From the sequence record MN850622.1: a stretch of DNA of 64,000 bases; one strand, written 5' to 3'. The position numbers were made by a program, and so were the translations under genes. The stretch's first letter is position 1. The number at the start of each line of letters is the position of its first letter. The stretch is from Escherichia phage mobillu. Below are positions 1,856 to 37,275 of the stretch, one piece after another. The notes below the pieces were generated by a model that worked only from the letters and a program-made list of their open reading frames with translations, was not told where the DNA came from and searched no databases.

Positions 1856-3438
1856 TATTTTACCTTAATGATATAGTTTAAAGAAATATTCCATGGGCGA
1901 GTTTCATTTCCAATTAATTCTGGACGATTCATGGTATATTTAGAGTTACGCTGAGACGCTGGATCAATTTCATATCCTTCGTTAGTAAAATATGAACGGT
2001 TATCCCAGTCAAGTCCTTTACGAGTACCAACAAAGTTTGAACGACGAGTATTACCAAATGCACCGGAATCGTCATGTTCACCAAAACCGCCAGCATGCTT
2101 ATGATATGACATCTGTTGTTTTTGCACTTCACCAACATATCCACCGGTACAACCTACCGCCAGACGAGGTTTACCGAATTGGTCATTACCATTAACATTA
2201 GGGTTAGTTAAATGGTTACCACGACCCGAGCCGCGAACAAATAAACCGCGCATATCAGGCAAGCCTGGGTTAGAAGAACTACCACCATATCGTGTCCCAA
2301 TTCTAGAAGCATATACCGGACATTCTGAAGCAGAAACGGTCCCACCGTGACAGAAGCGCCAGTCAGAACTCGGTAAACTATCTGCAGCCCACATTGTAAT
2401 AGCGCCAACTGGAAGAATTCGGTCTAATTCATTTTGAGTCACAATACGATTGCCTTGAATATAACCACCGGTCATATTGACATTACCCGTTATATTAGCT
2501 CCACCAGAACCAACCGTCAACGTATTATTAATGCGAAGCGTGCCATTAATAGTTTGTCCACCTCGTTGGTGGATAACATCAGCATTCCAAGCAAGGGCAG
2601 AAGAACCATCACCACCTGATTGGCTACCAGCTTGTGTAGTTAAACGAACAACTCCACGTAAAGAAGTTGTAGCCCCTCGCCCGTTTAATGTTGCGCCGGT
2701 CACTACAACTGAAGAGTTGTTACTATTTACTTCAGTCTGTGTCCCTAGTTTAACGACACCTTTATTAGTTTCTGATGCTACTGAATTCATAAAGGTATAA
2801 GGTGAAATTGCATAGCCTTCACGCAGGGTGCCTTGTTGTGCTTGAGCAACTGTAGCCAAACGAACAACACCGGTAATAGATTCGGTGGCGTCACCATTAT
2901 TTGGAGCAATTTGTGAAATAAGTTTAATTGCTAATTGTTGTGTTTTTAACGGGGTCATTGCCGTTGTATCGTCAGAACCAGCTAATGCCGCAGCAGAAGT
3001 TGAAATTTTAATTACACCATTTGTTGCTTCTGTTGATACTTTTGTCTGGAATACATTGTCTATTTTTTGATTCAATTTAAGCGGAGTAATTGATGCATCG
3101 TCAATAGTTCCTGTTACTGCTTCATCTTCAGTAGCATAACGAGTTAAGCCATATTGAGTTTCGGTTGCATTAGGATATTGTAGACGAGCATTCAGTGTTG
3201 CCGGAGTAACAGCTTTACTATTATCTAATCCATCAATAACTTCTTGTGGAGTAGCTATTTGAATAATTCCTGGTGTAGTAGTTGTTGCTTCCGGTACACC
3301 ATTAACACCTGAAGGAGAAATAGCAGCTAATGCGGCTTGGACATTAGTGACTGTATCTGGAAAATTCGACCCCGTAGGGTCGAATTCAACGTAAATGGAT
3401 TCGTTTGAAACGTGTTGGTATGTATTGTTATTACTCAT
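1855..3438 (-). CDS. 12: short tail fibre protein gp12
   Basis: 527 aa, near-identical over long stretches to recalled T4 gp12 (e.g. [28 protein letters not shown]...[11 protein letters not shown]). Confidence 0.95.
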
Positions 3439-5899: not shown

Positions 5900-6771
5900 T
5901 ATTGAGCGACCCCAATTTTCTGAGTTGAGATAATTTTAACTGCTGAACGTAATCCAATAATATCGGATGTAATCGTCATAGTAGCAAAGTTGTTAATAAT
6001 ACTAAAGCTAATATTAGCAATCTCGTCGGTTTCATCTACATTACCAACTCGCATTACTGCAAATTCGGTAGAAAGAACTTCTGAGTTAATTGTATCTATT
6101 AGAATATTTATTTCGCATGTTTTTATTTTTCTACCGTCGGCGGATTGACATGTAACAAGCAATTTAGCCATATTATAATCTGTGCGATAAAACAGAGGAA
6201 TAGAAACTGTGTTTCCTGTAAGACTCCAAGTCCCATCGACAGGAGATTCTTTCTGCCCAAACATGCTATCAGTAGAATAATTCCATACTGAAGTTGGCCC
6301 ATTAAGTTCAATACAACGAAGAACAACATGGGTATAAGGGGTGGAAATAACAAGATTATTAAGAACACCTTTAATTGAACCATCAGTTACTTGGATACTT
6401 AAAGGATTGTTAACAGAAATAGACCCATTAGAGTTTATGAATTCTACAGAGTCACCTAATTCAGGGCGGTCAATAATAACAATCACACCGCCATCAGAAG
6501 CATCAATATCATGCATAGTGCCTGGTTTAATAGGAGTTTGATAATCGATCGCCTTTCCTTTTTGATAATAACCTGTGGCATGAATAGTTTGACCTGTAGG
6601 TCCGGTTCCATCTGCTACGGCCATTTTACGTTGATCGCCAAATGCATTGTAAATAGCGTTGATATCGTCATTTATTTTATTACCACCGTCGAATAAGATA
6701 TCACCTGTTGAGGCATTACCAATTTCGCCGGTATCGATTAATTGTTTAGGAGTTTGCTTAAAAAATGCCAT
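5899..6771 (-). CDS. 9: baseplate wedge / long-tail-fibre socket protein gp9
   Basis: 290 aa ORF between genes 8 and 10; size and position as T4 gp9. Confidence 0.88.
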   Translation of the reverse strand: MAFFKQTPKQLIDTGEIGNASTGDILFDGGNKINDDINAIYNAFGDQRKMAVADGTGPTGQTIHATGYYQKGKAIDYQTPIKPGTMHDIDASDGGVIVIIDRPELGDSVEFINSNGSISVNNPLSIQVTDGSIKGVLNNLVISTPYTHVVLRCIELNGPTSVWNYSTDSMFGQKESPVDGTWSLTGNTVSIPLFYRTDYNMAKLLVTCQSADGRKIKTCEINILIDTINSEVLSTEFAVMRVGNVDETDEIANISFSIINNFATMTITSDIIGLRSAVKIISTQKIGVAQ

Positions 6772-23973: not shown

Positions 23974-24567
23974 ATGAACACACTGAAGAAACTTGTTGAA
24001 TTCATCCGCACTAAACTGGGTACTGCTATGGCTAAAAATCTGACTGTCGAAGAACAGTATAACGCAGCTGCAGATAAGTTGATTACCCAAATCAAAGAAC
24101 TAAAAACGGCTTCTGTTAAATCTATTAATGAAGAAAAACGTATTCGCGAACTTGTTAATGAAAAGAACAAGCAAGCCGCTTCTAAGGAACGTGAAATTCG
24201 TAAGCTCCTGGCTGAAGGACAAGATGTTACCATGCATGCTAAGCTTGGTCTTCTGTATCGTCGAACTGCCGAACAACTTAATACAAAAGCTGACGGGTAT
24301 GCCGCTATGCGAATTGAAATTGCTCGTAAGGTGGTTGAACTTGATGATGCTCGTCAGAATCTGGCAATCAAACTCGAATACATTCGTGAAACTCGAGCAG
24401 CCAATGCCCTTGGTATCTCTACGGCTGATGATGTAATTGAAATCGCTGCACTGACTAAGGTTGATATCGAAGACACTCTGACTCGTGTTGAAACGTTCAA
24501 TGGCACTCCAGCCGGCGTCGAAACCACTTCTGCTGATGTACAAGAATATATTAACTCTTTGAAATAA
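23974..24567 (+). CDS. coiled-coil protein, possibly PspA/IM30-like
   Basis: Internal [19 protein letters not shown]... with AAAGGTAA SD; long heptad-like helical sequence; family call is weak. Confidence 0.55.
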
Positions 24568-24575
24568 AATAATAC

Positions 24576-24597
24576 GGAGGACTCCGGTCCTCCTTTT
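24576..24597 (+). terminator. intrinsic terminator
   Basis: GGAGGACT-CC-GGTCCTCC hairpin then TTTT. Confidence 0.7.
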
Positions 24598-24616: not shown

Positions 24617-25219
24617 ATGCGAAACCAAAATAATGATATTGACTCAATGTTCGAAGAGTTCCGAGATAAGGTAAATCCACCTACGTCTTTAGTTGATTCA
24701 TTACGATATGTTGCAACCGGACGTAAATGGTACTGGTCGTCTTCTTATGAGACCACCGAGAAAACGGCTAGCCATAGCAGAAAATCTTTATTAGCCCCAG
24801 GTATTATGATTCATGATATCGGAGCTATTGCTAAACTAGTTGCAGACCATGATATTAGATTCACTGATTTCGTTGCTCCTACGTGGTCTGTTTGTTGTTT
24901 AAACACTGAATGGGAATATATCAGCGAACGCTCTGAAGATTATTATGGCTTTAGAGATAAGCTTCTGAGGTCTAATATGTTTTATATCGATACAGAAGTT
25001 CTAGTCGATAATAAAAAATATTACTTTACGTTAATCATCGATTCTGAAACTATGTATGAAGGCAAGCCTTTGCTTAAAAGAGTTGATGCTTTAAGTGCTA
25101 TTGATGCGCTTTATGAAACTATGGTTGTTAGTCCTAATTTCACTAACAATTTAATCCTTGAGCAATTTATTATGGAATGTAGAGAATATGTCAAAGCCAA
25201 CCCTATACATGCCAAGTAA
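24617..25219 (+). CDS. hypothetical protein
   Basis: ATG MRNQNNDIDSMFEEF... after AAGGAG SD. Confidence 0.6.
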   Translation: MRNQNNDIDSMFEEFRDKVNPPTSLVDSLRYVATGRKWYWSSSYETTEKTASHSRKSLLAPGIMIHDIGAIAKLVADHDIRFTDFVAPTWSVCCLNTEWEYISERSEDYYGFRDKLLRSNMFYIDTEVLVDNKKYYFTLIIDSETMYEGKPLLKRVDALSAIDALYETMVVSPNFTNNLILEQFIMECREYVKANPIHAK

Positions 25220-25583
25220 GCCCTGGGCGTATGAATACAAGCGTAAATTAATCCCAAATGAAGTACTATTTGGCCCTATTTTAGCTTTAGCATTTTTAAT
25301 CTTTATGATTATAGGAGCTGTTTTAGATTCTAGTGAAGTTATATCGTCTGATGCAGCATTTTCATTAATGTTCGTCGCACCACTTATTGTACCGTTTTTA
25401 TTAATGCCTATTAATTGGGTAGGATATTGGCACCAAGGCCGTCATCACAGAGCCCGATTAAGAGAATGGAAAGTTCAGTGCGCAAAAGCCCAAGCTCAGT
25501 ATGATGAAGCTGTTAAAAAGTATGAATATGAAGAAGCTATGGAATTCGTTAAGGAAATAAGATGCAAAAGCCTCAACTCTTAA
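25188..25583 (+). CDS. small membrane protein, C-terminal ...EFVKEIR family
   Basis: Hydrophobic segments; start uncertain (overlaps upstream gene). Confidence 0.45.
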   Translation: MSKPTLYMPSKPWAYEYKRKLIPNEVLFGPILALAFLIFMIIGAVLDSSEVISSDAAFSLMFVAPLIVPFLLMPINWVGYWHQGRHHRARLREWKVQCAKAQAQYDEAVKKYEYEEAMEFVKEIRCKSLNS

Positions 25584-25921
25584 CCGTATGGCCTTCTCTT
25601 GGTGAGAACATTCTAATTTTTATTATGAGTATTGGCATGGGATTTGCCTTTGGATTAGTTGGATTTCTTATTGACGGCGTTGTGTTAGGATTTATAGGGA
25701 ACACTGGTGGATTCACAGACCAATGGCAGGACTTACGGTATACCCAAGCCTTTGCATCCATCGCATCATTTTGTACTGTAGTCTATTTTTACTACGATTT
25801 TATAAACCATAACAAGAAAAATAAAAAGATTTACGCTTCTCAAATGATTAGTTATAATGAACTTCTAGCTAAACGTGAAAATGAAACAATCGAAAACTTT
25901 ATTAAGGAATGTAGAAAATGA
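25562..25921 (+). CDS. small membrane protein, C-terminal ENFIKECR family
   Basis: ATG after AGGAAATAAG; two predicted TM stretches; conserved C-terminus shared with 28339 and 29540 ORFs. Confidence 0.55.
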   Translation: MQKPQLLTVWPSLGENILIFIMSIGMGFAFGLVGFLIDGVVLGFIGNTGGFTDQWQDLRYTQAFASIASFCTVVYFYYDFINHNKKNKKIYASQMISYNELLAKRENETIENFIKECRK

Positions 25922-26223
25922 GTAAGATTATTGAAATTAAAGTACCAGAGTTTAATGATGCCAAATCCGCTTCAGATGCAATTTATAAACTTCTGAATCA
26001 AGCTGAACGTATCGAAGAAGAAGCAACAAAGATCGCAGACCAATATGCCGTATCATTTTCTGTAGGTGATTATGGTAGCGGTCGTACTTATTATCCTAAG
26101 GGTGAAATCGTATCCCAGTGGATGAAAGATGAAATTGAAAATAATGGTGGCGATGTTAAGCGTGAAGGTAATGGTTACGTTATTACTGAAGGTGCTTGGG
26201 TTTCGTCTTCTGCGTTGTGCTAA
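25918..26223 (+). CDS. small protein, tandem paralogue 1 (C-terminal GWVSSS..C)
   Basis: 101 aa; C-terminus EGAWVSSSALC; ATGA overlap with upstream gene. Confidence 0.6.
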   Translation: MSKIIEIKVPEFNDAKSASDAIYKLLNQAERIEEEATKIADQYAVSFSVGDYGSGRTYYPKGEIVSQWMKDEIENNGGDVKREGNGYVITEGAWVSSSALC

Positions 26224-26232
26224 GGAATCGTT

Positions 26233-26505
26233 ATGTCTAAAGAACAAACCGAACTGGCTGAAGCTGTAGCAAAAATCTATGCAGCTATTGAGGCTGCCAA
26301 AGAAATTGCTGATAAACAAAACACAACATTCAACTTGTACCCAGCTTATGGTATGGGTGGAACCTATCATTCACCCGGACATCTTAAAGCCGATCTTGAA
26401 CGTTGTACAAAAAACGGCTATGCTGAATGGGCTGACGTTTACCAATACGACTACAACCTGAGCCTCGAAACCGGTGGTTGGGTCGCATCTTCTCACACTT
26501 GCTAA
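26233..26505 (+). CDS. small protein, tandem paralogue 2
   Basis: 90 aa; C-terminus GGWVASSHTC; junction TGCTAAGGAA shared with paralogue 1. Confidence 0.6.
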   Translation: MSKEQTELAEAVAKIYAAIEAAKEIADKQNTTFNLYPAYGMGGTYHSPGHLKADLERCTKNGYAEWADVYQYDYNLSLETGGWVASSHTC

Positions 26506-26514
26506 GGAAACAAT

Positions 26515-26712
26515 ATGTCTCGTGAATTAGATTGTGCTGTACGTACGGCAGTAGCTGCTCTGGAAAACCTGTTCCAAATTGCAACAGAAGAACGCGAAGA
26601 AGTTACATTATGGATTGAAGATAACGCAGGTCTGAATCTCCAGGACGCGATCTCATTATCCCACAATAGTATCACTGTTCAAGGCTGGGTATCATCTAGT
26701 TATTCTTGCTAA
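26515..26712 (+). CDS. small protein, tandem paralogue 3
   Basis: 65 aa; C-terminus QGWVSSSYSC. Confidence 0.55.
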   Translation: MSRELDCAVRTAVAALENLFQIATEEREEVTLWIEDNAGLNLQDAISLSHNSITVQGWVSSSYSC

Positions 26713-26715
26713 AAC

Positions 26716-26756
26716 AGTTTACAACAAGATAGGGCTATGTTATAGTAGTCCTATCA
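26716..26756 (+). promoter_or_regulatory. PeSL-like early promoter
   Basis: GTTTACA, TATAGT, inverted repeat GATAGGGCTA/TAGTCCTATC. Confidence 0.6.
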
Positions 26757-26774
26757 AAACAAATGGAGTCCACA

Positions 26775-27014
26775 ATGATTTATTACGAAAGTATCGGAAC
26801 CAAAGTGGTTGGTAAAACCATTACTCGTGAAAAGTTTGCAAAGATATTCGATATGCGTTATAAAAAATCTGAACACAAAGGCATCCGATTCGAAGATGCG
26901 CACTGTACAATTTGCCCTTATAATGAAGACATAAACGGTACAATCGTTCCATTGGTAGAGGCTTCACATGATGACCTCTGGGATGAATATAATATCGCAT
27001 GTCGTGAAATTTAA
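26775..27014 (+). CDS. hypothetical protein (Cys/His-containing)
   Basis: ATG MIYYESIG... 7 nt after GGAG. Confidence 0.5.
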   Translation: MIYYESIGTKVVGKTITREKFAKIFDMRYKKSEHKGIRFEDAHCTICPYNEDINGTIVPLVEASHDDLWDEYNIACREI

Positions 27015-27042
27015 GTTAATGAATTAATCCGAGGAAAATATT

Positions 27043-27999
27043 ATGTTGTTAGTTATTGGTTCTCGTGCACTTCACTATCACGGTCTTATTGATTCTAGCG
27101 CTATTAAAAATAGTGATTGGGACTTTATTGCGGACCAAGGTTCTTGGAATGCATTCAAAAATCAAATGATGGGTGTATATGTTCACCAAGATAACCCTGA
27201 TGTCCAAGTTTTCAAATGCTTCCATAATGGACGCGAAACTCATTTTGAAGCATACATCGTTCCGGCTATCACTAACGTTCGCGAACTAGTCGGTGAACTC
27301 ACTCCTGAAGATTTCACGTCTTCTTATGACCTTTTAAAATACGCCAAGAAAAATTTGGCTAAAGACCGTTTGAACGGGTTTTACTGGGCAACTCCTGAGA
27401 TATGTCTTGCAATTAAGATGTCTCATCGTTTCAAGAAAAATAATCCATTCTTTTTAAAGACTATGAACCATATTCAGTATCTTCGTGGTAAAGGTGTTAC
27501 ACTGAACGATGAACTTACTGAAATTATGCTGAAACGCCAGAAAGAAACCTTGAATTATGCTCACCCAGTTCTTGACACTTCTAAAAGTGCGTTCTTTAAA
27601 GATGACATCTATACGTATGACCATGATACTATCCATGAAGCCATTGCACTAACTGACCAGCCTGCTTATAAGTTTTATATGAAAGAAGGCTCAGAAGTTA
27701 TGACATCACGCGAGAAGTTCGAATCATTACCAGAAATGGTTAAATTAGCCGGTGTATATGAAGAAGCTTGTGTATTAGCTCTTGAACGTTCACAGATTCC
27801 TAACGACTTTAAAATCCATCCACGTGATAGTTTTATGATGGCCCTTGAAAAGGTCTGTACATCAATCACATCAGGATGGTTCCGTGAGTTCGCTTGGGAA
27901 AATTATAGCAAAGTAGTAAGTATGTACCAAAGCTTAGGACACGACGATTACGTCAAGCGTTTCAAACAAAACTTTCATATGGTAAAACCTTTCAAATAA
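27043..27999 (+). CDS. hypothetical protein with nucleotidyltransferase-like N-terminal motif
   Basis: 318 aa; N-terminus VIGSRALHYHGLIDSSAIKNSDWDF resembles the G-S...D-x-D Pol-beta NTase signature (spacing longer than typical). Confidence 0.6.
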   Translation: MLLVIGSRALHYHGLIDSSAIKNSDWDFIADQGSWNAFKNQMMGVYVHQDNPDVQVFKCFHNGRETHFEAYIVPAITNVRELVGELTPEDFTSSYDLLKYAKKNLAKDRLNGFYWATPEICLAIKMSHRFKKNNPFFLKTMNHIQYLRGKGVTLNDELTEIMLKRQKETLNYAHPVLDTSKSAFFKDDIYTYDHDTIHEAIALTDQPAYKFYMKEGSEVMTSREKFESLPEMVKLAGVYEEACVLALERSQIPNDFKIHPRDSFMMALEKVCTSITSGWFREFAWENYSKVVSMYQSLGHDDYVKRFKQNFHMVKPFK

Positions 28000-28011
28000 T
28001 TTCACAAAACA

Positions 28012-28050
28012 GTTTACAAGGTCTGTAGTTGTTGATACTATAGACCTATC
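28012..28050 (+). promoter_or_regulatory. PeSL-like early promoter
   Basis: GTTTACA, 17 bp, TACTAT, inverted repeat around -10. Confidence 0.6.
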
Positions 28051-28079
28051 AAAACAAATGAGTGAATGGAGATATAAAA

Positions 28080-28280
28080 ATGACTACTTTGAATAAACGT
28101 TTCGGTAAAGCTAAACCTGGTTGTGCAGCAGAACGTCGTTATGTTTTCGCTCAGTTAGAAGATGTAGAGTATCAGATTAATCAAGTTCACATTACTGGTA
28201 TCGAGCCTATGTGTGGCCTTGAAGCTCTTCGTGAAGTTCGTGATGGGTATCGTCGTGACATCGAAGAAATGTCAAAATAA
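28080..28280 (+). CDS. hypothetical protein
   Basis: ATG MTTLNKRFGKAKPG... after TGGAGA SD. Confidence 0.5.
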   Translation: MTTLNKRFGKAKPGCAAERRYVFAQLEDVEYQINQVHITGIEPMCGLEALREVRDGYRRDIEEMSK

Positions 28281-28320
28281 GTGTACAAACTGATAGGACT
28301 ATGTTATAGTAGTCCTATTA
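28281..28320 (+). promoter_or_regulatory. PeSL-like early promoter
   Basis: TGTACA, TATAGT, inverted repeat GATAGGACTA/TAGTCCTAT. Confidence 0.6.
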
Positions 28321-28338
28321 AAACATGAGGAGAATATT

Positions 28339-28644
28339 ATGAAATTAGGCGAAACCAACCGAATTGGTCTTTTAACAATATTTGTATCACTTTTTTACGC
28401 AGCTCTTTCTGTTGCAGTATTACAAAAGGCTTACAGTATGGATGGTGTTCCTGGTTTTGTATTCTTATCGCCGTTTTTGCTATTCGTTGGAGCATTGTTA
28501 TTATATGCCACGACTAGTTTCGACCATAACGTCTGGGTCAATTATAAATGTAAATTGTCTGAAGAAGAACACGCAGAAGCTCGTAAAAAAGCTATTGAAT
28601 CTACCAATCTAGAAAATTTCATTAAAGAATGTCGAGGAAAATAA
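28339..28644 (+). CDS. small membrane protein, C-terminal ENFIKECR family
   Basis: 101 aa, two hydrophobic helices, C-terminus NLENFIKECRGK. Confidence 0.6.
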   Translation: MKLGETNRIGLLTIFVSLFYAALSVAVLQKAYSMDGVPGFVFLSPFLLFVGALLLYATTSFDHNVWVNYKCKLSEEEHAEARKKAIESTNLENFIKECRGK

Positions 28645-28645
28645 T

Positions 28646-29332
28646 ATGAATAGTTCTAAAGTGTTTAATAGTCAAGCTCGTGCAGTTGGTAGTTTTGCAC
28701 ATAACGTACAAAATGACCGAATCAAAAATGAACCAATGTTCTTTAATTGTGATTTGGGTTTTGCTTGGGATAATGGTGGCTCAATCACTCGTAGCTTTAT
28801 TGCCAATCTCCCAATTGATTGGACTAATCAACATGTTGTATTTGATTCTCGGGTTCATATGCTGATGCCTGGGTGGTATCCTGCTATCCCTGGATACCAC
28901 CATGACGATGTTCCTCGCCCTGATATTCCAGTTGGTCAACACTTTATTACTGCAGGACAACCTGACTATGACAACCCTCGTTACCATTCTGAACATATTC
29001 TTGGTCTTGTTAACGCTGACGTGTGTCCTACTCATTTTGCAACAGGAACTGCAGAGTTCAGTCAGATTCCTGATGGCGAACTTATCTATCGCCAGTGGCA
29101 CAAAGAAGTCCTCGAAAAAATTGAAAAAGGTGAACTAGAGAAATGGGAAGCTCCAGACCGTACTCTTCTTCAGTTTGATTGGCAAACATGGCACACTGGT
29201 TCTCGTGCAATTAGTAATGGATGGCGTTGGTTCGGACGTGTATCTCGTAATACAGACCGAGTTAAAAAGATTACCAATGAAATTCGTGTCAACGCTCAAG
29301 TTTATCTGGAATTCCCTATGGAAGGCTGGTAA
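28646..29332 (+). CDS. hypothetical protein; candidate 2OG-Fe(II) oxygenase fold
   Basis: 228 aa; GYHHDDVP (HxD-like) and WHTGSRAISNGWRWFGRVS (His then R-x-S about 12-15 residues later); motif-level only. Confidence 0.6.
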   Translation: MNSSKVFNSQARAVGSFAHNVQNDRIKNEPMFFNCDLGFAWDNGGSITRSFIANLPIDWTNQHVVFDSRVHMLMPGWYPAIPGYHHDDVPRPDIPVGQHFITAGQPDYDNPRYHSEHILGLVNADVCPTHFATGTAEFSQIPDGELIYRQWHKEVLEKIEKGELEKWEAPDRTLLQFDWQTWHTGSRAISNGWRWFGRVSRNTDRVKKITNEIRVNAQVYLEFPMEGW

Positions 29333-29613
29333 TGATTAACAAAACATATTGGTCTAATATAGACGACGGCAATAAAGGTATTTCATACTATTCAATAGAT
29401 TGGACAGGATGTCCATCCTACTTAGTTAAACGTATTTGCCAAGAATTTAAAATCGACCAGCCAGCAGGTATTATCGTGAACAGATACATTAACGGTTATC
29501 AACCTATCGATGAAGTAATACGAACAACTCAAGCTGATCTTGAAAAGTTTTTCAATAAGTGCCAATGGATCGCAGGATGGATTATATTTGTACCATCGGT
29601 ATGGTTTTTTTAG
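29332..29613 (+). CDS. hypothetical protein with hydrophobic C-terminus
   Basis: 93 aa; ends at a T7 homopolymer overlapping the next reading frame. Confidence 0.55.
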   Translation: MINKTYWSNIDDGNKGISYYSIDWTGCPSYLVKRICQEFKIDQPAGIIVNRYINGYQPIDEVIRTTQADLEKFFNKCQWIAGWIIFVPSVWFF

Positions 29614-29824
29614 TACTAAGGTGAGTTCTTTCGGTTTTGTTGATATTATTGCTATCTTATTAGCATCTACTATCGTAAGTATTATTGGTGGCATCATTGG
29701 CGGCGGCACTGTCGCTATCATTATTAATCTTATTAAAAGTAGTTTACAAGAACATAAAGACAAGATAAAAGCCAAGAATAATGAAGTTGAACGTTTTATT
29801 ACCGAATGCAGGAATTTGAGATGA
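29540..29824 (+). CDS. ENFIKECR-family C-terminal module; start undefined (possible frameshift fusion with 29332 ORF)
   Basis: Frame has TM segment and C-terminus NNEVERFITECRNLR but no ATG near the previous gene's stop; GTG at 29621 possible. Confidence 0.4.
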   Translation: MKSFSISANGSQDGLYLYHRYGFFSTKVSSFGFVDIIAILLASTIVSIIGGIIGGGTVAIIINLIKSSLQEHKDKIKAKNNEVERFITECRNLR

Positions 29825-36693: not shown

Positions 36694-37275
36694 ATGGCTA
36701 GTTTAATTTTTACCTATGCCGCTATGAACGCTGGTAAGTCTGCTTCATTACTTACTGCCGCACATAACTATAAAGAACGCGGCATGGGTGTATTAGTTCT
36801 TAAACCGGCTATTGATACTCGCGATTCAAAAGGTGAAATAGTCTCTCGTATTGGTATTCGTCAGGACGCCAATATAATTACAAAAGACATGGATATCTTT
36901 GAATTCTATAAATGGGCTGCAGCACAAAAGGATATTCACTGCGTATTTGTTGACGAAGCTCAGTTCTTAACTACTGAAAAGGTGTATCAACTTAGTCGTA
37001 TTGTTGACGTATACAATGTGCCGGTAATGGCATATGGACTACGAACAGATTTTAAAGGTAATCTATTTGAAGGTTCTCAAGCATTAATGGCTATTGCCGA
37101 TAAGCTTGTTGAACTTAAAGGTGTCTGTCATTGTGGTAAAAAGGCCACAATGGTAGCTAGAGTCACGGAAGACGGACTTCCAATTACAGATGGCAGTCAA
37201 ATTGAAATTGGTGATACCGATAGATATGTGTCATTATGCCGGAAGCATTGGAACGATTTGACAGGGTTGTTATAA
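36694..37275 (+). CDS. tk: thymidine kinase
   Basis: 193 aa; P-loop AAMNAGKS, FVDEAQF, C-terminal CHCGKKATMVARV...SLCRKHW zinc motif. Confidence 0.95.
   Translation: MASLIFTYAAMNAGKSASLLTAAHNYKERGMGVLVLKPAIDTRDSKGEIVSRIGIRQDANIITKDMDIFEFYKWAAAQKDIHCVFVDEAQFLTTEKVYQLSRIVDVYNVPVMAYGLRTDFKGNLFEGSQALMAIADKLVELKGVCHCGKKATMVARVTEDGLPITDGSQIEIGDTDRYVSLCRKHWNDLTGLL

Follow-up and report, generated by a model that had tools for sequence, protein, structure and literature searches.

Short docking peptides at the C-terminus of otherwise unrelated proteins are known from the sliding-clamp-binding tails and from the C-terminal tail of SSB. The phage gene cluster analysed here resembles these systems in that 6-10 conserved residues at or near the C-terminus are carried by unrelated protein bodies, an arrangement that would fit recruitment to one partner. 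However, the sequences are unrelated to the clamp and SSB tails, most of the carriers are membrane proteins, and the tail is predicted to be a helix with a hydrophobic face. Short repeats at gene boundaries have also been described in T4-type phages as PeSL cassettes (Arbiol et al., 2010, PMC2839356; Comeau et al., 2014, PMC4122927). Like the junctions formed by the tails, PeSL elements lie in hyperplastic regions, end with a Shine-Dalgarno (SD) sequence and a start codon, and can excise or insert whole genes by recombination. In contrast to the tail, which is coding sequence with neither promoter nor stem-loop, they are intergenic and combine an early promoter with a stem-loop.

The window, that is the whole stretch of DNA analysed, comprises 64,000 nucleotides of Escherichia phage mobillu (MN850622.1). 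Sequence comparison assigned the region studied to the e.5-e.4-e.3 ... e.2 early accessory-gene cluster of an RB69-like (Mosigvirus) T-even phage. The genes are adjacent, co-oriented and located upstream of the endolysin gene e, and their order matches that of T4, ATK47/APCEc01 and other genera, in which the cluster lies between e.6 and nudE/e on the same strand. The e.5 homologue (24617..25219, + strand; 200 aa, soluble; PHROG 2607, E 1.5e-95) is 100% identical to RB69 e.5 and 47% identical to T4 e.5, and the e-cluster proteins as a whole share 35-51% identity with those of T4 (tblastn, BLASTP). Its last 32 nt overlap the start of the e.4 homologue (25188..25583, + strand; 131 aa, two TM helices; PHROG 2604, E 2.7e-64). 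The e.3 homologue (25562..25921, + strand; PHROG 2330, E 8e-50) encodes a 119-aa hairpin membrane protein and, at its stop, overlaps the next gene, which starts at 25918. Compared with T4, the window contains a 3.4-kb insert between e.3 and e.2 (25918-29331) including a tail-bearing gene without T4 counterpart (28339..28644, + strand; 101 aa, two TM helices; PHROG 9798, E 8.8e-68), which lies directly 3' of a PeSL-like promoter/stem-loop. The e.2-type "long" gene, here termed e.2L, occupies 29332..29824 (+ strand; PHROG 2203) and encodes 163 aa in relatives. The T4 families used included UniProt Y06P and Y06O, Pfam Phage_T4_Y06P (PF26876) and Phage_T4_Y06O (PF26873), and PHROGs 2607, 2604, 2330 and 2203. 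The databases keep e.5, e.4, e.3 and e.2 apart as function-unassigned families, and no earlier record of their common tail was found.

The initial annotation had listed four ORFs (25188..25583, 25562..25921, 28339..28644 and 29540..29824) as a family of small membrane proteins with a conserved C-terminal module. All four were found with the endings that had been quoted, and their tails are real, but the soluble e.5 homologue is a fifth carrier that had been missed, and 29540..29824 is only the C-terminal half of e.2L. The tail consensus is h-E-x-F-[IV]-K-E-C-R-K. The e.5 homologue carries EQFIMECR (25160-25183, +) followed by 11 further residues, the protein ending in ...EQFIMECREYVKANPIHAK; e.3 carries ENFIKECRK (25892-25918, +), the 28339 gene ENFIKECRGK (28612-28641, +) and e.2L ERFITECRNLR (motif at 29789-29812, +), whereas e.4 has the variant MEFVKEIRC (25539-25565, +) in which Ile replaces Cys. 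Scanning all six frames of the 64-kb window for E.F[IVLM].E[CI]R returned exactly four matches (25160, 25892, 28612 and 29789), all on the + strand and all followed by a stop within 1-11 codons. For the pattern F[IV].[ED]C[RK], four occurrences were observed against 0.06 expected, and all of them fell in the last 20 residues, where 0.009 were expected; when the residues of all 285 ORF segments with 60 aa or more were shuffled 2000 times, four was never reached. Corresponding tails in T4 are EKFVKECR (e.5), MKFVKESRC (e.4), KEFVIDCRKIK (e.3) and NNFITECRKLK (3' end of e.2). The pattern [FWY][IV]xxC[RK] occurs seven times in all 169 kb of T4, and its C-terminal occurrences are those of e.5, e.3 and the 3' end of e.2 as well as an unrelated site in tk.

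The tail was found in at least nine T4-like lineages, on two to six genes of the cluster upstream of nudE: Tequatrovirus, Mosigvirus, Winklervirus, Karamvirus, Marfavirus, Kanagawavirus, Muldoonvirus, Roskildevirus and two IMG/VR lineages, the NudE of which is 74-83% identical to that of the window. In Aeromonas phage 44RR2.8t and an RB43-like Klebsiella phage it was present on the e.5 family alone. The tail motif is thus particular to the e.5-e.2 cluster, exceeds chance and is conserved across many T4-like lineages. After removal of the tails, BLASTP grouped orthologues only. Alignments between families by hhalign covered only the last 13-51 columns (probability 40-94%), the longest being that of e.2L with one Karamvirus protein, and disappeared once the tails were removed. 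As judged from these comparisons, likeness between the gene families does not reach beyond the tail, which occurs on soluble and membrane proteins alike. The 28339 gene was considered as a member of the e.5, e.4, e.3 or e.2 families and rejected, since it has its own PHROG, no counterpart in T4, and a likeness to e.3 and e.2L that is confined to the tail (BLASTP, hhalign); a weaker match of its product to the C-terminal half of PHROG 2203 (E 1.2e-4) spans the TM helices and the tail.

Kyte-Doolittle windows bore out the earlier statement that each listed ORF has one or two hydrophobic helices: two were seen in the e.4-like and 28339 proteins and one in the fragment 29540, and the e.3-like protein showed one long stretch and a weaker second one. 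No TM segment was predicted in the e.5 homologue. The small membrane protein family that had been proposed therefore holds for the hairpin set but does not extend to the soluble carriers, namely the e.5 family (180-323 aa) and a Karamvirus protein of 131 aa. The membrane carriers consist of two TM helices and a charged helix of 25-50 aa followed by the tail, with the TM segments 22-47 residues upstream of it; in the e.5 family the tail sits 11-30 residues ahead of the stop. An N-in/C-in topology is predicted for the membrane carriers from their K/R-rich N- and C-termini. In the AF2 model of e.2L, a protein whose soluble N-terminal domain is followed by two TM helices and the tail, TM2 and the tail form one helix (residues 102-162; pLDDT 80-92 over 131-163), while the e.5 model (pLDDT 37) is too low in confidence to judge the exposure of the motif helix. 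On a helical wheel the tail positions -7, -3, 0, +1 and +4 group in an arc of about 100 degrees. The mean hydrophobic moment of the tails was 0.41 versus 0.31 for shuffles, but only one of 39 tails exceeded its own shuffles at 5%. The tails were also compared with C-terminal membrane-targeting helices of the MinD/FtsA type, which are strongly amphipathic, basic and hydrophobic and sit on otherwise soluble proteins; the tails hold conserved acidic residues, and most of the carriers are already anchored in the membrane. These predictions point to a helix with one hydrophobic face and modest amphipathicity.

The codons of the tail often serve a second purpose. The best anti-SD pairing fell inside the motif codons at 24 of 35 junctions, where middle or end codons of the tail (AAG GAA, AAA GGA, CGA GGx, AGG AAx) double as the SD of the next gene. 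That gene usually begins 2-10 nt past the Arg codon (modal distance to the ATG, 2 nt), so that neighbouring genes are translationally coupled. At the end of e.3, AAGGAATGTAGAAAATG (25904..25920, +) encodes K-E-C-R-K and at the same time provides SD, spacer and start codon of the following gene; the junction reads TTTATTAAGGAATGTAGAAAATGA. In the e.4 tail, AAGGAA (K-E) is the SD for e.3, the ATG of which lies inside AGA TGC. In the 28339 gene and e.2L the SD is formed by the Arg and following codons (CGAGGA and GCAGGAA, respectively), CGAGGA (R-G) serving the gene that starts at 28646. The earlier claim that the tail codons supply the next SD and start region accordingly stands for many junctions, but the sequence quoted for it, AAGGAATGT, is restricted to the e.3-like tail, and e.4 has AAGGAAATA instead. 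No promoter-like site in the window coincided with a tail, and the folding of the RNA at all five junctions was not above that of shuffles (z +0.98 to -0.52). Promoter-like sequences similar to the early promoters of T4 are located upstream of the cluster genes.

Two junction copies have been used in recombination. The related phages L008 and L009 lack e.4, the gap running exactly from one start codon to the next and lying between two 16-nt repeats (AARGAGGTTCRWAATG), both of which are present in L006 and L007. In this single case, two copies of one junction sequence recombined and removed e.4 precisely, as read from the genome comparison; the deletion is an event of the kind known for PeSL elements. 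The repeat used is the SD/start block (K-E-V-Q/R-N) downstream of the e.5 F-I-x-E-C-R. The suggestion that the tail marks repeated module insertion is upheld to the extent that the junction repeat has recombined, but three intergenic PeSL-like promoter/stem-loop cassettes (26711-26765, 28006-28060 and 28275-28329) mark insertion better. A PeSL cassette combines an intergenic early promoter of sigma-70 type with a stem-loop, followed by an SD and start codon; the tail itself was rejected as such a cassette because it lies inside coding sequence, coincides with no promoter-like site and forms junctions that fold no better than shuffles.

The preferred reading is that the tail may be a cytoplasmic docking helix common to its carriers, on which translational coupling is superimposed, and in it we place about as much trust as doubt. 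One soluble and four hairpin membrane proteins end in a common, predicted cytoplasmic helix of about 10 residues, h-E-x-F-[IV]-K-E-C-R-(K). It may act as a docking or assembly helix at the inner face of the membrane, by which the changing products of the cluster would attach to a single common partner or to one another. By co-location only, the conserved coiled-coil protein e.6 is a candidate partner; at all loci examined, among them those of Aeromonas phage 44RR2.8t and the RB43-like Klebsiella phage, its gene stands ahead of e.5. Searches of Pfam, NCBIfam, PADLOC, PDB and the literature found no partner or phenotype for the tail carriers. The more specific version, in which the tail would be an address tag docking changing hairpin membrane proteins and the soluble e.5 onto one inner-membrane partner, with e.6 as candidate, appears rather unlikely to us. 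If true, the cluster would encode a modular membrane complex whose subunits could be swapped gene by gene, because each tail also holds the signals for starting the gene after it; in a more radical variant, the tail would be a nascent peptide linking translation of the adjacent gene to membrane insertion.

Several other explanations have to be weighed against a docking helix. The carriers might be related by common descent only, as tandem hairpin paralogues whose membrane parts diverged past recognition and whose tail was kept for its own folding or stability, as a helix end or membrane-proximal cap, with no shared partner. The common architecture of the membrane carriers, the adjacency and co-orientation of the genes, the weak PHROG 2203 match of the 28339 protein and the 51-column alignment of e.2L with the Karamvirus protein would all agree with such an origin, but the same tail on the unrelated soluble bodies, the loss of all profile similarity without tails, and 6-10 residues outlasting all other divergence suggest a constraint common to all carriers, and common descent alone seems to us possible but somewhat improbable. 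The initial annotation had held that the conservation may reflect a junction cassette as much as protein function. In a purely nucleotide-level form of this idea, the block would be the initiation region of the next gene (U-rich tract, SD, A-rich spacer, ATG) and would offer a stretch of short homology by which cassettes are gained and lost, the amino acids being a by-product. TTT ATT AAG GAA TGT AGA AA ATG looks like a typical initiation region of T4, the junction RNAs lack structure as such regions do, and the frequent placing of the SD in the motif codons, the 2-nt gap and the exact e.4 deletion fit as well. Moreover, the alternation of Lys-Glu and Lys-Gly (AAG GAA versus AAA GGA) preserves AAGGA, so part of the tail "motif" is nucleotide-driven. 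However, the core residues are written with differing nucleotides: Arg by five codons (AGA, CGA, AGG, CGT, CGC), Cys by TGT or TGC, Phe by TTT or TTC, and TGG GTC stands in for TTT ATT in some tails. The identical ENFIKECR of e.3 and the 28339 gene differs in four of eight codons, synonymously, so these two tails have not recently exchanged DNA. F-[IV]-x-x-C-R is also kept where the next start is 22-84 nt off and the real SD lies elsewhere, x-x there being T-E, K-M, D-Q or R-M, and the repeat of the e.4 deletion lies downstream of the e.5 motif. The conservation is thus not mainly at the nucleotide level, and a junction cassette as the whole explanation is unlikely. Judged from its sequence, the tail core (a hydrophobic residue at -3, then Phe, Ile/Val, a Cys or other hydrophobic residue, and Arg/Lys) is maintained as protein, and Phe can give way to Trp or Tyr and Cys to Ile, Val or Met. 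TM prediction, which had been proposed beforehand, gave TM helices, and codon comparison showed a similarity of the tails that exceeds the SD nucleotides.

The conservation at the amino-acid level would also suit a nascent-peptide regulator of the SecM, MifM or VemP type, in which the tail would slow elongation or termination and tie downstream translation to the membrane insertion of the upstream hairpin. As in those systems, a small membrane or secreted protein has a conserved C-terminal peptide immediately before the start of the next gene, here with TM segments 22-47 residues upstream. In contrast to them, no hairpin hides the downstream SD and soluble carriers exist, the e.5 family with its tail ahead of the stop misfitting the layout; to our knowledge, the tail does not resemble any ribosome-arrest motif, and we consider such a regulator highly improbable. 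The initial annotation had also pointed to superinfection-exclusion or lysis-timing factors, and the membrane carriers are indeed small inner-membrane proteins made early from genes immediately upstream of e, two of which were called "putative holin or antiholin" by the annotators of phage Muldoon, from position and TM count only. Nevertheless, searches of Pfam, PHROGs and NCBIfam gave no match to lysis or exclusion families and no similarity to Imm, Sp, RI or holins. In T4, the genes for holin t, rI, rIII, imm and sp lie outside the cluster, only rI being near it (about 8 kb away) and the others far off. Since the genes also follow early-promoter-like sequences, and the common tail would be left unexplained, this role is very unlikely. 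Within genomes, tails of different families had 4.67 of 14 positions in common versus 4.07 between genomes; the T4 e.5, e.4 and e.3 tails are all F-V and both Marfavirus tails read N-W-[IV]-K-G-C-R-K. Such co-variation agrees with a common docking helix but could equally stem from gene conversion.

Finally, ORF 29540..29824 was rejected as a separate gene: it begins with TTG and is the 3' half of the 163-aa e.2-type gene. In the window, e.2L is divided into ORFs 29332..29613 and 29540..29824 by a +1 frameshift at a T7 run (29605..29611, +) that was located by alignment with relatives; four of these (APCEc01, ATK47, L004 and L005) have T6 or T5C at this position, L004 and L005 having T6. The two ORFs match the respective halves of PHROG 2203 (E 1.2e-30 and 3.6e-20), e.2L is one uninterrupted CDS of 492 nt in APCEc01, and P0007 is an intact 163-aa relative. 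These genes are often disrupted in natural isolates, with frameshifts of e.2L in the window, T4 and CM8, deletions of e.3 in L005 and MH992122, and the loss of e.4 in L008/L009, which indicates that any function of these genes is dispensable.

Many Mosigvirus (RB69-like) genomes match the 6.1-kb stretch around the tail genes at 97-99% identity. Comparison with annotated relatives and T4 identified it as the early-gene run e.6, e.5, e.4, e.3, ..., nudE (e.1) and e (lysozyme), encoded entirely on the + strand. The initial annotation had described four ORFs of this region (25188..25583, 25562..25921, 28339..28644 and 29540..29824) as small membrane proteins with a common C-terminal ending, and the ORFs as well as their quoted endings were confirmed in the sequence. 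The first two (+ strand) are homologues of T4 e.4 (PHROG 2604) and e.3 (PHROG 2330), and the third (+ strand) is an extra gene with a family of its own (PHROG 9798). A fifth carrier had been overlooked: the e.5 homologue (24617..25219, + strand, 200 aa; PHROG 2607, E 1.5e-95), which has no hydrophobic segment and carries a match at 25160. A six-frame scan of the window with the strict motif E.F[IVLM].E[CI]R returned this site and three others (25892, 28612 and 29789), each located on the + strand, 1-11 codons ahead of a stop. The e.4 tail is the variant MEFVKEIRC (25539, + strand). With residues shuffled inside each of the 285 ORF segments, F[IV].[ED]C[RK] is expected to match 0.06 times, and 0.009 times within the last 20 residues, versus four observed matches, which excludes a chance origin. 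A looser pattern is also matched by YVSLCR at 37225, but this is the C-terminus of thymidine kinase, both in T4 and in the window, and is unrelated. An ATG-TAG "start-stop" within GAATGTAGA was considered incidental.

The fourth ORF did not hold up as a gene of its own. By PHROG profiles, 29332..29613 and 29540..29824 (both + strand) each correspond to one half of a single PHROG 2203 "membrane protein", and relatives carry a single CDS of 492 nt at this position. In the window, this long e.2-type gene (e.2L, 29332..29824) is split by a T7 run at 29605-29611 (T6 or T5C in four relatives), and the fourth ORF is a frameshift fragment. In T4 (NC_000866; 67,491-67,960), an unannotated frame ending in NNFITECRKLK and overlapping the nudE start was recognized, by alignment with three other Tequatroviruses, as the 3' end of e.2. 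This gene is annotated with 102 aa in the T4 reference versus an intact 162 aa in three other Tequatroviruses. At the protein position equivalent to that of the T7 run, both T4 and phage CM8 are frameshifted in a homopolymer that is A6 in intact relatives, A5 in the T4 reference and A7 in CM8; the T4 reference also carries another indel, which compensates. The e.2 of the T4 reference is a frameshifted version of what is otherwise a longer gene. The homopolymer frameshifts of e.2-type genes in the window, T4 and CM8 could be sequencing errors or a recurrent inactivation at slippery runs.

The segment LEKFFNKCQ of e.2L (29539-29565, residues 70-78 of the e.2-type protein), located just N-terminal of the first TM helix, faintly resembles the tail (BLASTP E 0.74) and was considered incidental. 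It was not seen in T4-type orthologues nor in those of the type found at comparison locus L006, and might be due to chance or be the remnant of a soluble tailed gene fused to a hairpin gene. Directly upstream of the e.2-type gene, 28646..29332 encodes a 228-aa protein (PHROG 1843), whose counterparts in the other genera examined are highly similar and invariably occupy this position. A well conserved 318-aa DUF7277+DUF7275 protein (27043..27999) is also located inside the cluster.

The tail is present in other lineages. In T4, e.5 ends in EKFVKECR..., e.4 in MKFVKESRC... and e.3 in KEFVIDCRKIK. The pattern [FWY][IV]xxC[RK] occurs only seven times in the six frames of all 169 kb of T4, and its C-terminal cases are e.5, e.3, e.2 and the unrelated thymidine kinase site. 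Among e-region sequences fetched from other lineages, two IMG/VR lineages, Winklervirus, Karamvirus, Marfavirus, Kanagawavirus, Muldoonvirus and Roskildevirus have two to six tailed genes each, and in Aeromonas phage 44RR2.8t and an RB43-like Klebsiella phage the tail sits on the e.5-family gene after e.6. In a Slopekvirus and in RB43, both of which lack the cluster at this position, no tail was seen up to 9 kb from nudE. Public genomes with the cluster number roughly 350-1200. The consensus of 39 tails reads h(-3) E(-2) x F(36/39) I/V(35) K(19) E(20)/G(6) C(29) R(34)/K(5) K. Searched against 1.84 billion representative proteins, a profile built on the five tails of the window recovered only five close relatives; profile search cannot follow so short a motif beyond T4-like phages, and non-recovery does not show that it is absent elsewhere.

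Outside the tail, the families do not resemble each other. BLASTP with the tail-less proteins recovered orthologue groups only (e.5, e.4, e.3, e.2L and a "109-aa" family), and the alignments of the 28339..28644 protein with e.3 and with e.2L consisted of the tail only. Profile-profile comparison confined the cross-family similarity to the last 13-51 columns (probability 40-94%), and no cross-family match attained 40% probability once the tails had been removed. Since the similarity is confined to the tail, the tail is carried by at least seven families, two of them soluble. These may be very old paralogues or may have acquired the tail separately. Genes e.2 to e.5 belong to the many conserved yet uncharacterised T-even early genes, and a tail on at least seven otherwise unrelated families, soluble as well as membrane-bound, offers a concrete experimental handle on whether they act together.

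The initial annotation had proposed that the conservation may reflect a shared gene junction, which supplies the Shine-Dalgarno (SD) sequence and start of the next gene, as much as protein function. The codons of the tail argue for conservation at the protein and at the nucleotide level, as two separable layers. On the protein side, arginine is encoded by AGA, CGA, AGG, CGT and CGC, cysteine by TGT and TGC, and phenylalanine by TTT and TTC, and in some tails Trp-Val (TGG GTC) replaces Phe-Ile. The two identical ENFIKECR tails of the window differ in four of eight codons, which rules out a recent gene conversion between them. Moreover, the core is retained in genes whose next start lies 22-84 nt downstream and whose actual SD is located elsewhere; the middle residues in these cases are T-E, K-M, D-Q or R-M. 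On the nucleotide side, the best pairing with the 16S 3' end falls within the motif codons in 24 of 35 junctions (AAG GAA, AAA GGA, CGA GGx or TGC AGG AAx), the next ATG lies, in the modal case, 2 nt after the Arg codon (TGT AGA AA ATG A), and the chemically odd alternation of Glu and Gly preserves the string AAGGA. The middle and end codons of the tail have thus been shaped by the neighbouring gene. An RNA structure at the junctions was rejected, since folding was no stronger than in shuffles, as is expected of open initiation regions. The tail is real and goes beyond a mere SD artefact, being broader and more interesting, and the region is a clean case of one DNA stretch under dual constraint from a protein motif and the ribosome-binding site of a neighbour. 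Dual coding/SD use is already a familiar phenomenon, the genes are known hypothetical genes, and we regard the tail as one more case of phage accessory proteins that share a short motif at the C-terminus.

The junctions also play a part in gene loss. In loci L006 and L007, the e.5/e.4 and e.4/e.3 junctions have a common 16-nt repeat (AAAGAGGTTCAAAATG and AAGGAGGTTCGTAATG). In L008 (4695-4805) and L009, compared with L006 (4530-4990), e.4 is absent precisely from its own ATG to the e.3 ATG, and the resulting junction is an exact recombinant of the two repeats (AARGAGGTTCRWAATG). This supports the junction idea of the initial annotation as a side effect; such junctions let an entire gene drop out precisely between two start codons. 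The other lesions are ordinary, including the homopolymer frameshifts of e.2L (window, T4 and CM8) and microhomology deletions or duplications of e.3 in L005 and MH992122.1. In some Mosigviruses e.3 is a pseudogene that carries a stop in codon 5 as well as an internal deletion (MH992122.1 locus, 2880-3300; L005, about 6000-6140). In MH992122.1, a duplication also left the e.4 tail in a second copy, flanked on either side by a copy of the e.3 tail; it is called as a chimeric ORF of 60 aa (P0008).

Hydropathy and charge distribution predicted two-helix hairpins with K/R-rich N- and C-termini for the membrane carriers, by which the tails of 23-52 residues would be cytoplasmic. In the AF2 prediction of an intact e.2L relative, TM2 and the tail form a single continuous helix (residues 102-162; pLDDT 80-92 in the last 30 residues). 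The e.5 model, calculated from a four-sequence alignment, was too poor for use (pLDDT 37); homologue searches with e.3 and e.5 gave near-identical proteins only and hence no alignment depth. On a helical wheel the conserved positions -7, -3, 0, +1 and +4 share one face, and the mean hydrophobic moment of the tails is 0.41 versus 0.31 in shuffles. A catalytic or metal-binding role of the cysteine is unlikely, since Ile, Val, Met, Ser or Leu replaces it in the e.4 and 109-aa families; it behaves as a residue of the hydrophobic face.

Sequence searches of Pfam, NCBIfam, PADLOC and the PDB yielded no significant lead to the function of the tail genes, and nothing relevant was found in the literature on the gene names or "FIKECR". 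Profile searches did not support the public labels "sulfurtransferase", "phosphoserine phosphatase" and "site-specific RNA endonuclease" of e.4/e.5 homologues, nor "putative holin or antiholin" in the Muldoon record. Tails of different families share 4.67 of 14 identities within a genome versus 4.07 of 14 between genomes, as seen in the F-V of three T4 tails and the N-W-[IV]-K-G-C-R-K of both Marfavirus tails. This slight likeness would be in line with tails co-evolving with a common partner, or with gene conversion. By association only, e.6 is a candidate partner, as it precedes the e.5-family gene in every locus examined, including those of Aeromonas phage 44RR2.8t and the RB43-like phage. 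Its window homologue (23974..24567), a conserved coiled-coil/helical protein of 197 aa, is followed by a strong terminator-like hairpin (24576-24593); its public labels "shock protein A" and "host specificity protein" were unsupported by Pfam, NCBIfam and PDB searches.

The larger modules of the window are bounded by an intergenic promoter/stem-loop element in three copies (26711-26765, 28006-28060 and 28275-28329), one of which directly precedes the gene 28339..28644. The element consists of GTTTACA (-35), a stem-loop (ATAGGACTA...TAGTCCTAT) spanning the TATAGT -10, and then AAAACA, an SD and a start codon, which is the architecture described for the PeSL cassettes of T4-type phages. A second C-terminal motif, W-V-[SA]-S-S-x-x-C followed by a stop, was observed in three tandem small genes (25918..26223, 26233..26505 and 26515..26712), the third of which ends in W-V-S-S-S-Y-S-C. 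The final TGC TAA of the first and the second copy is directly followed by GGAA, and the Cys-stop thereby doubles as the next SD (TAAGGA). Genes with this motif are present in two to five copies in the other lineages examined.
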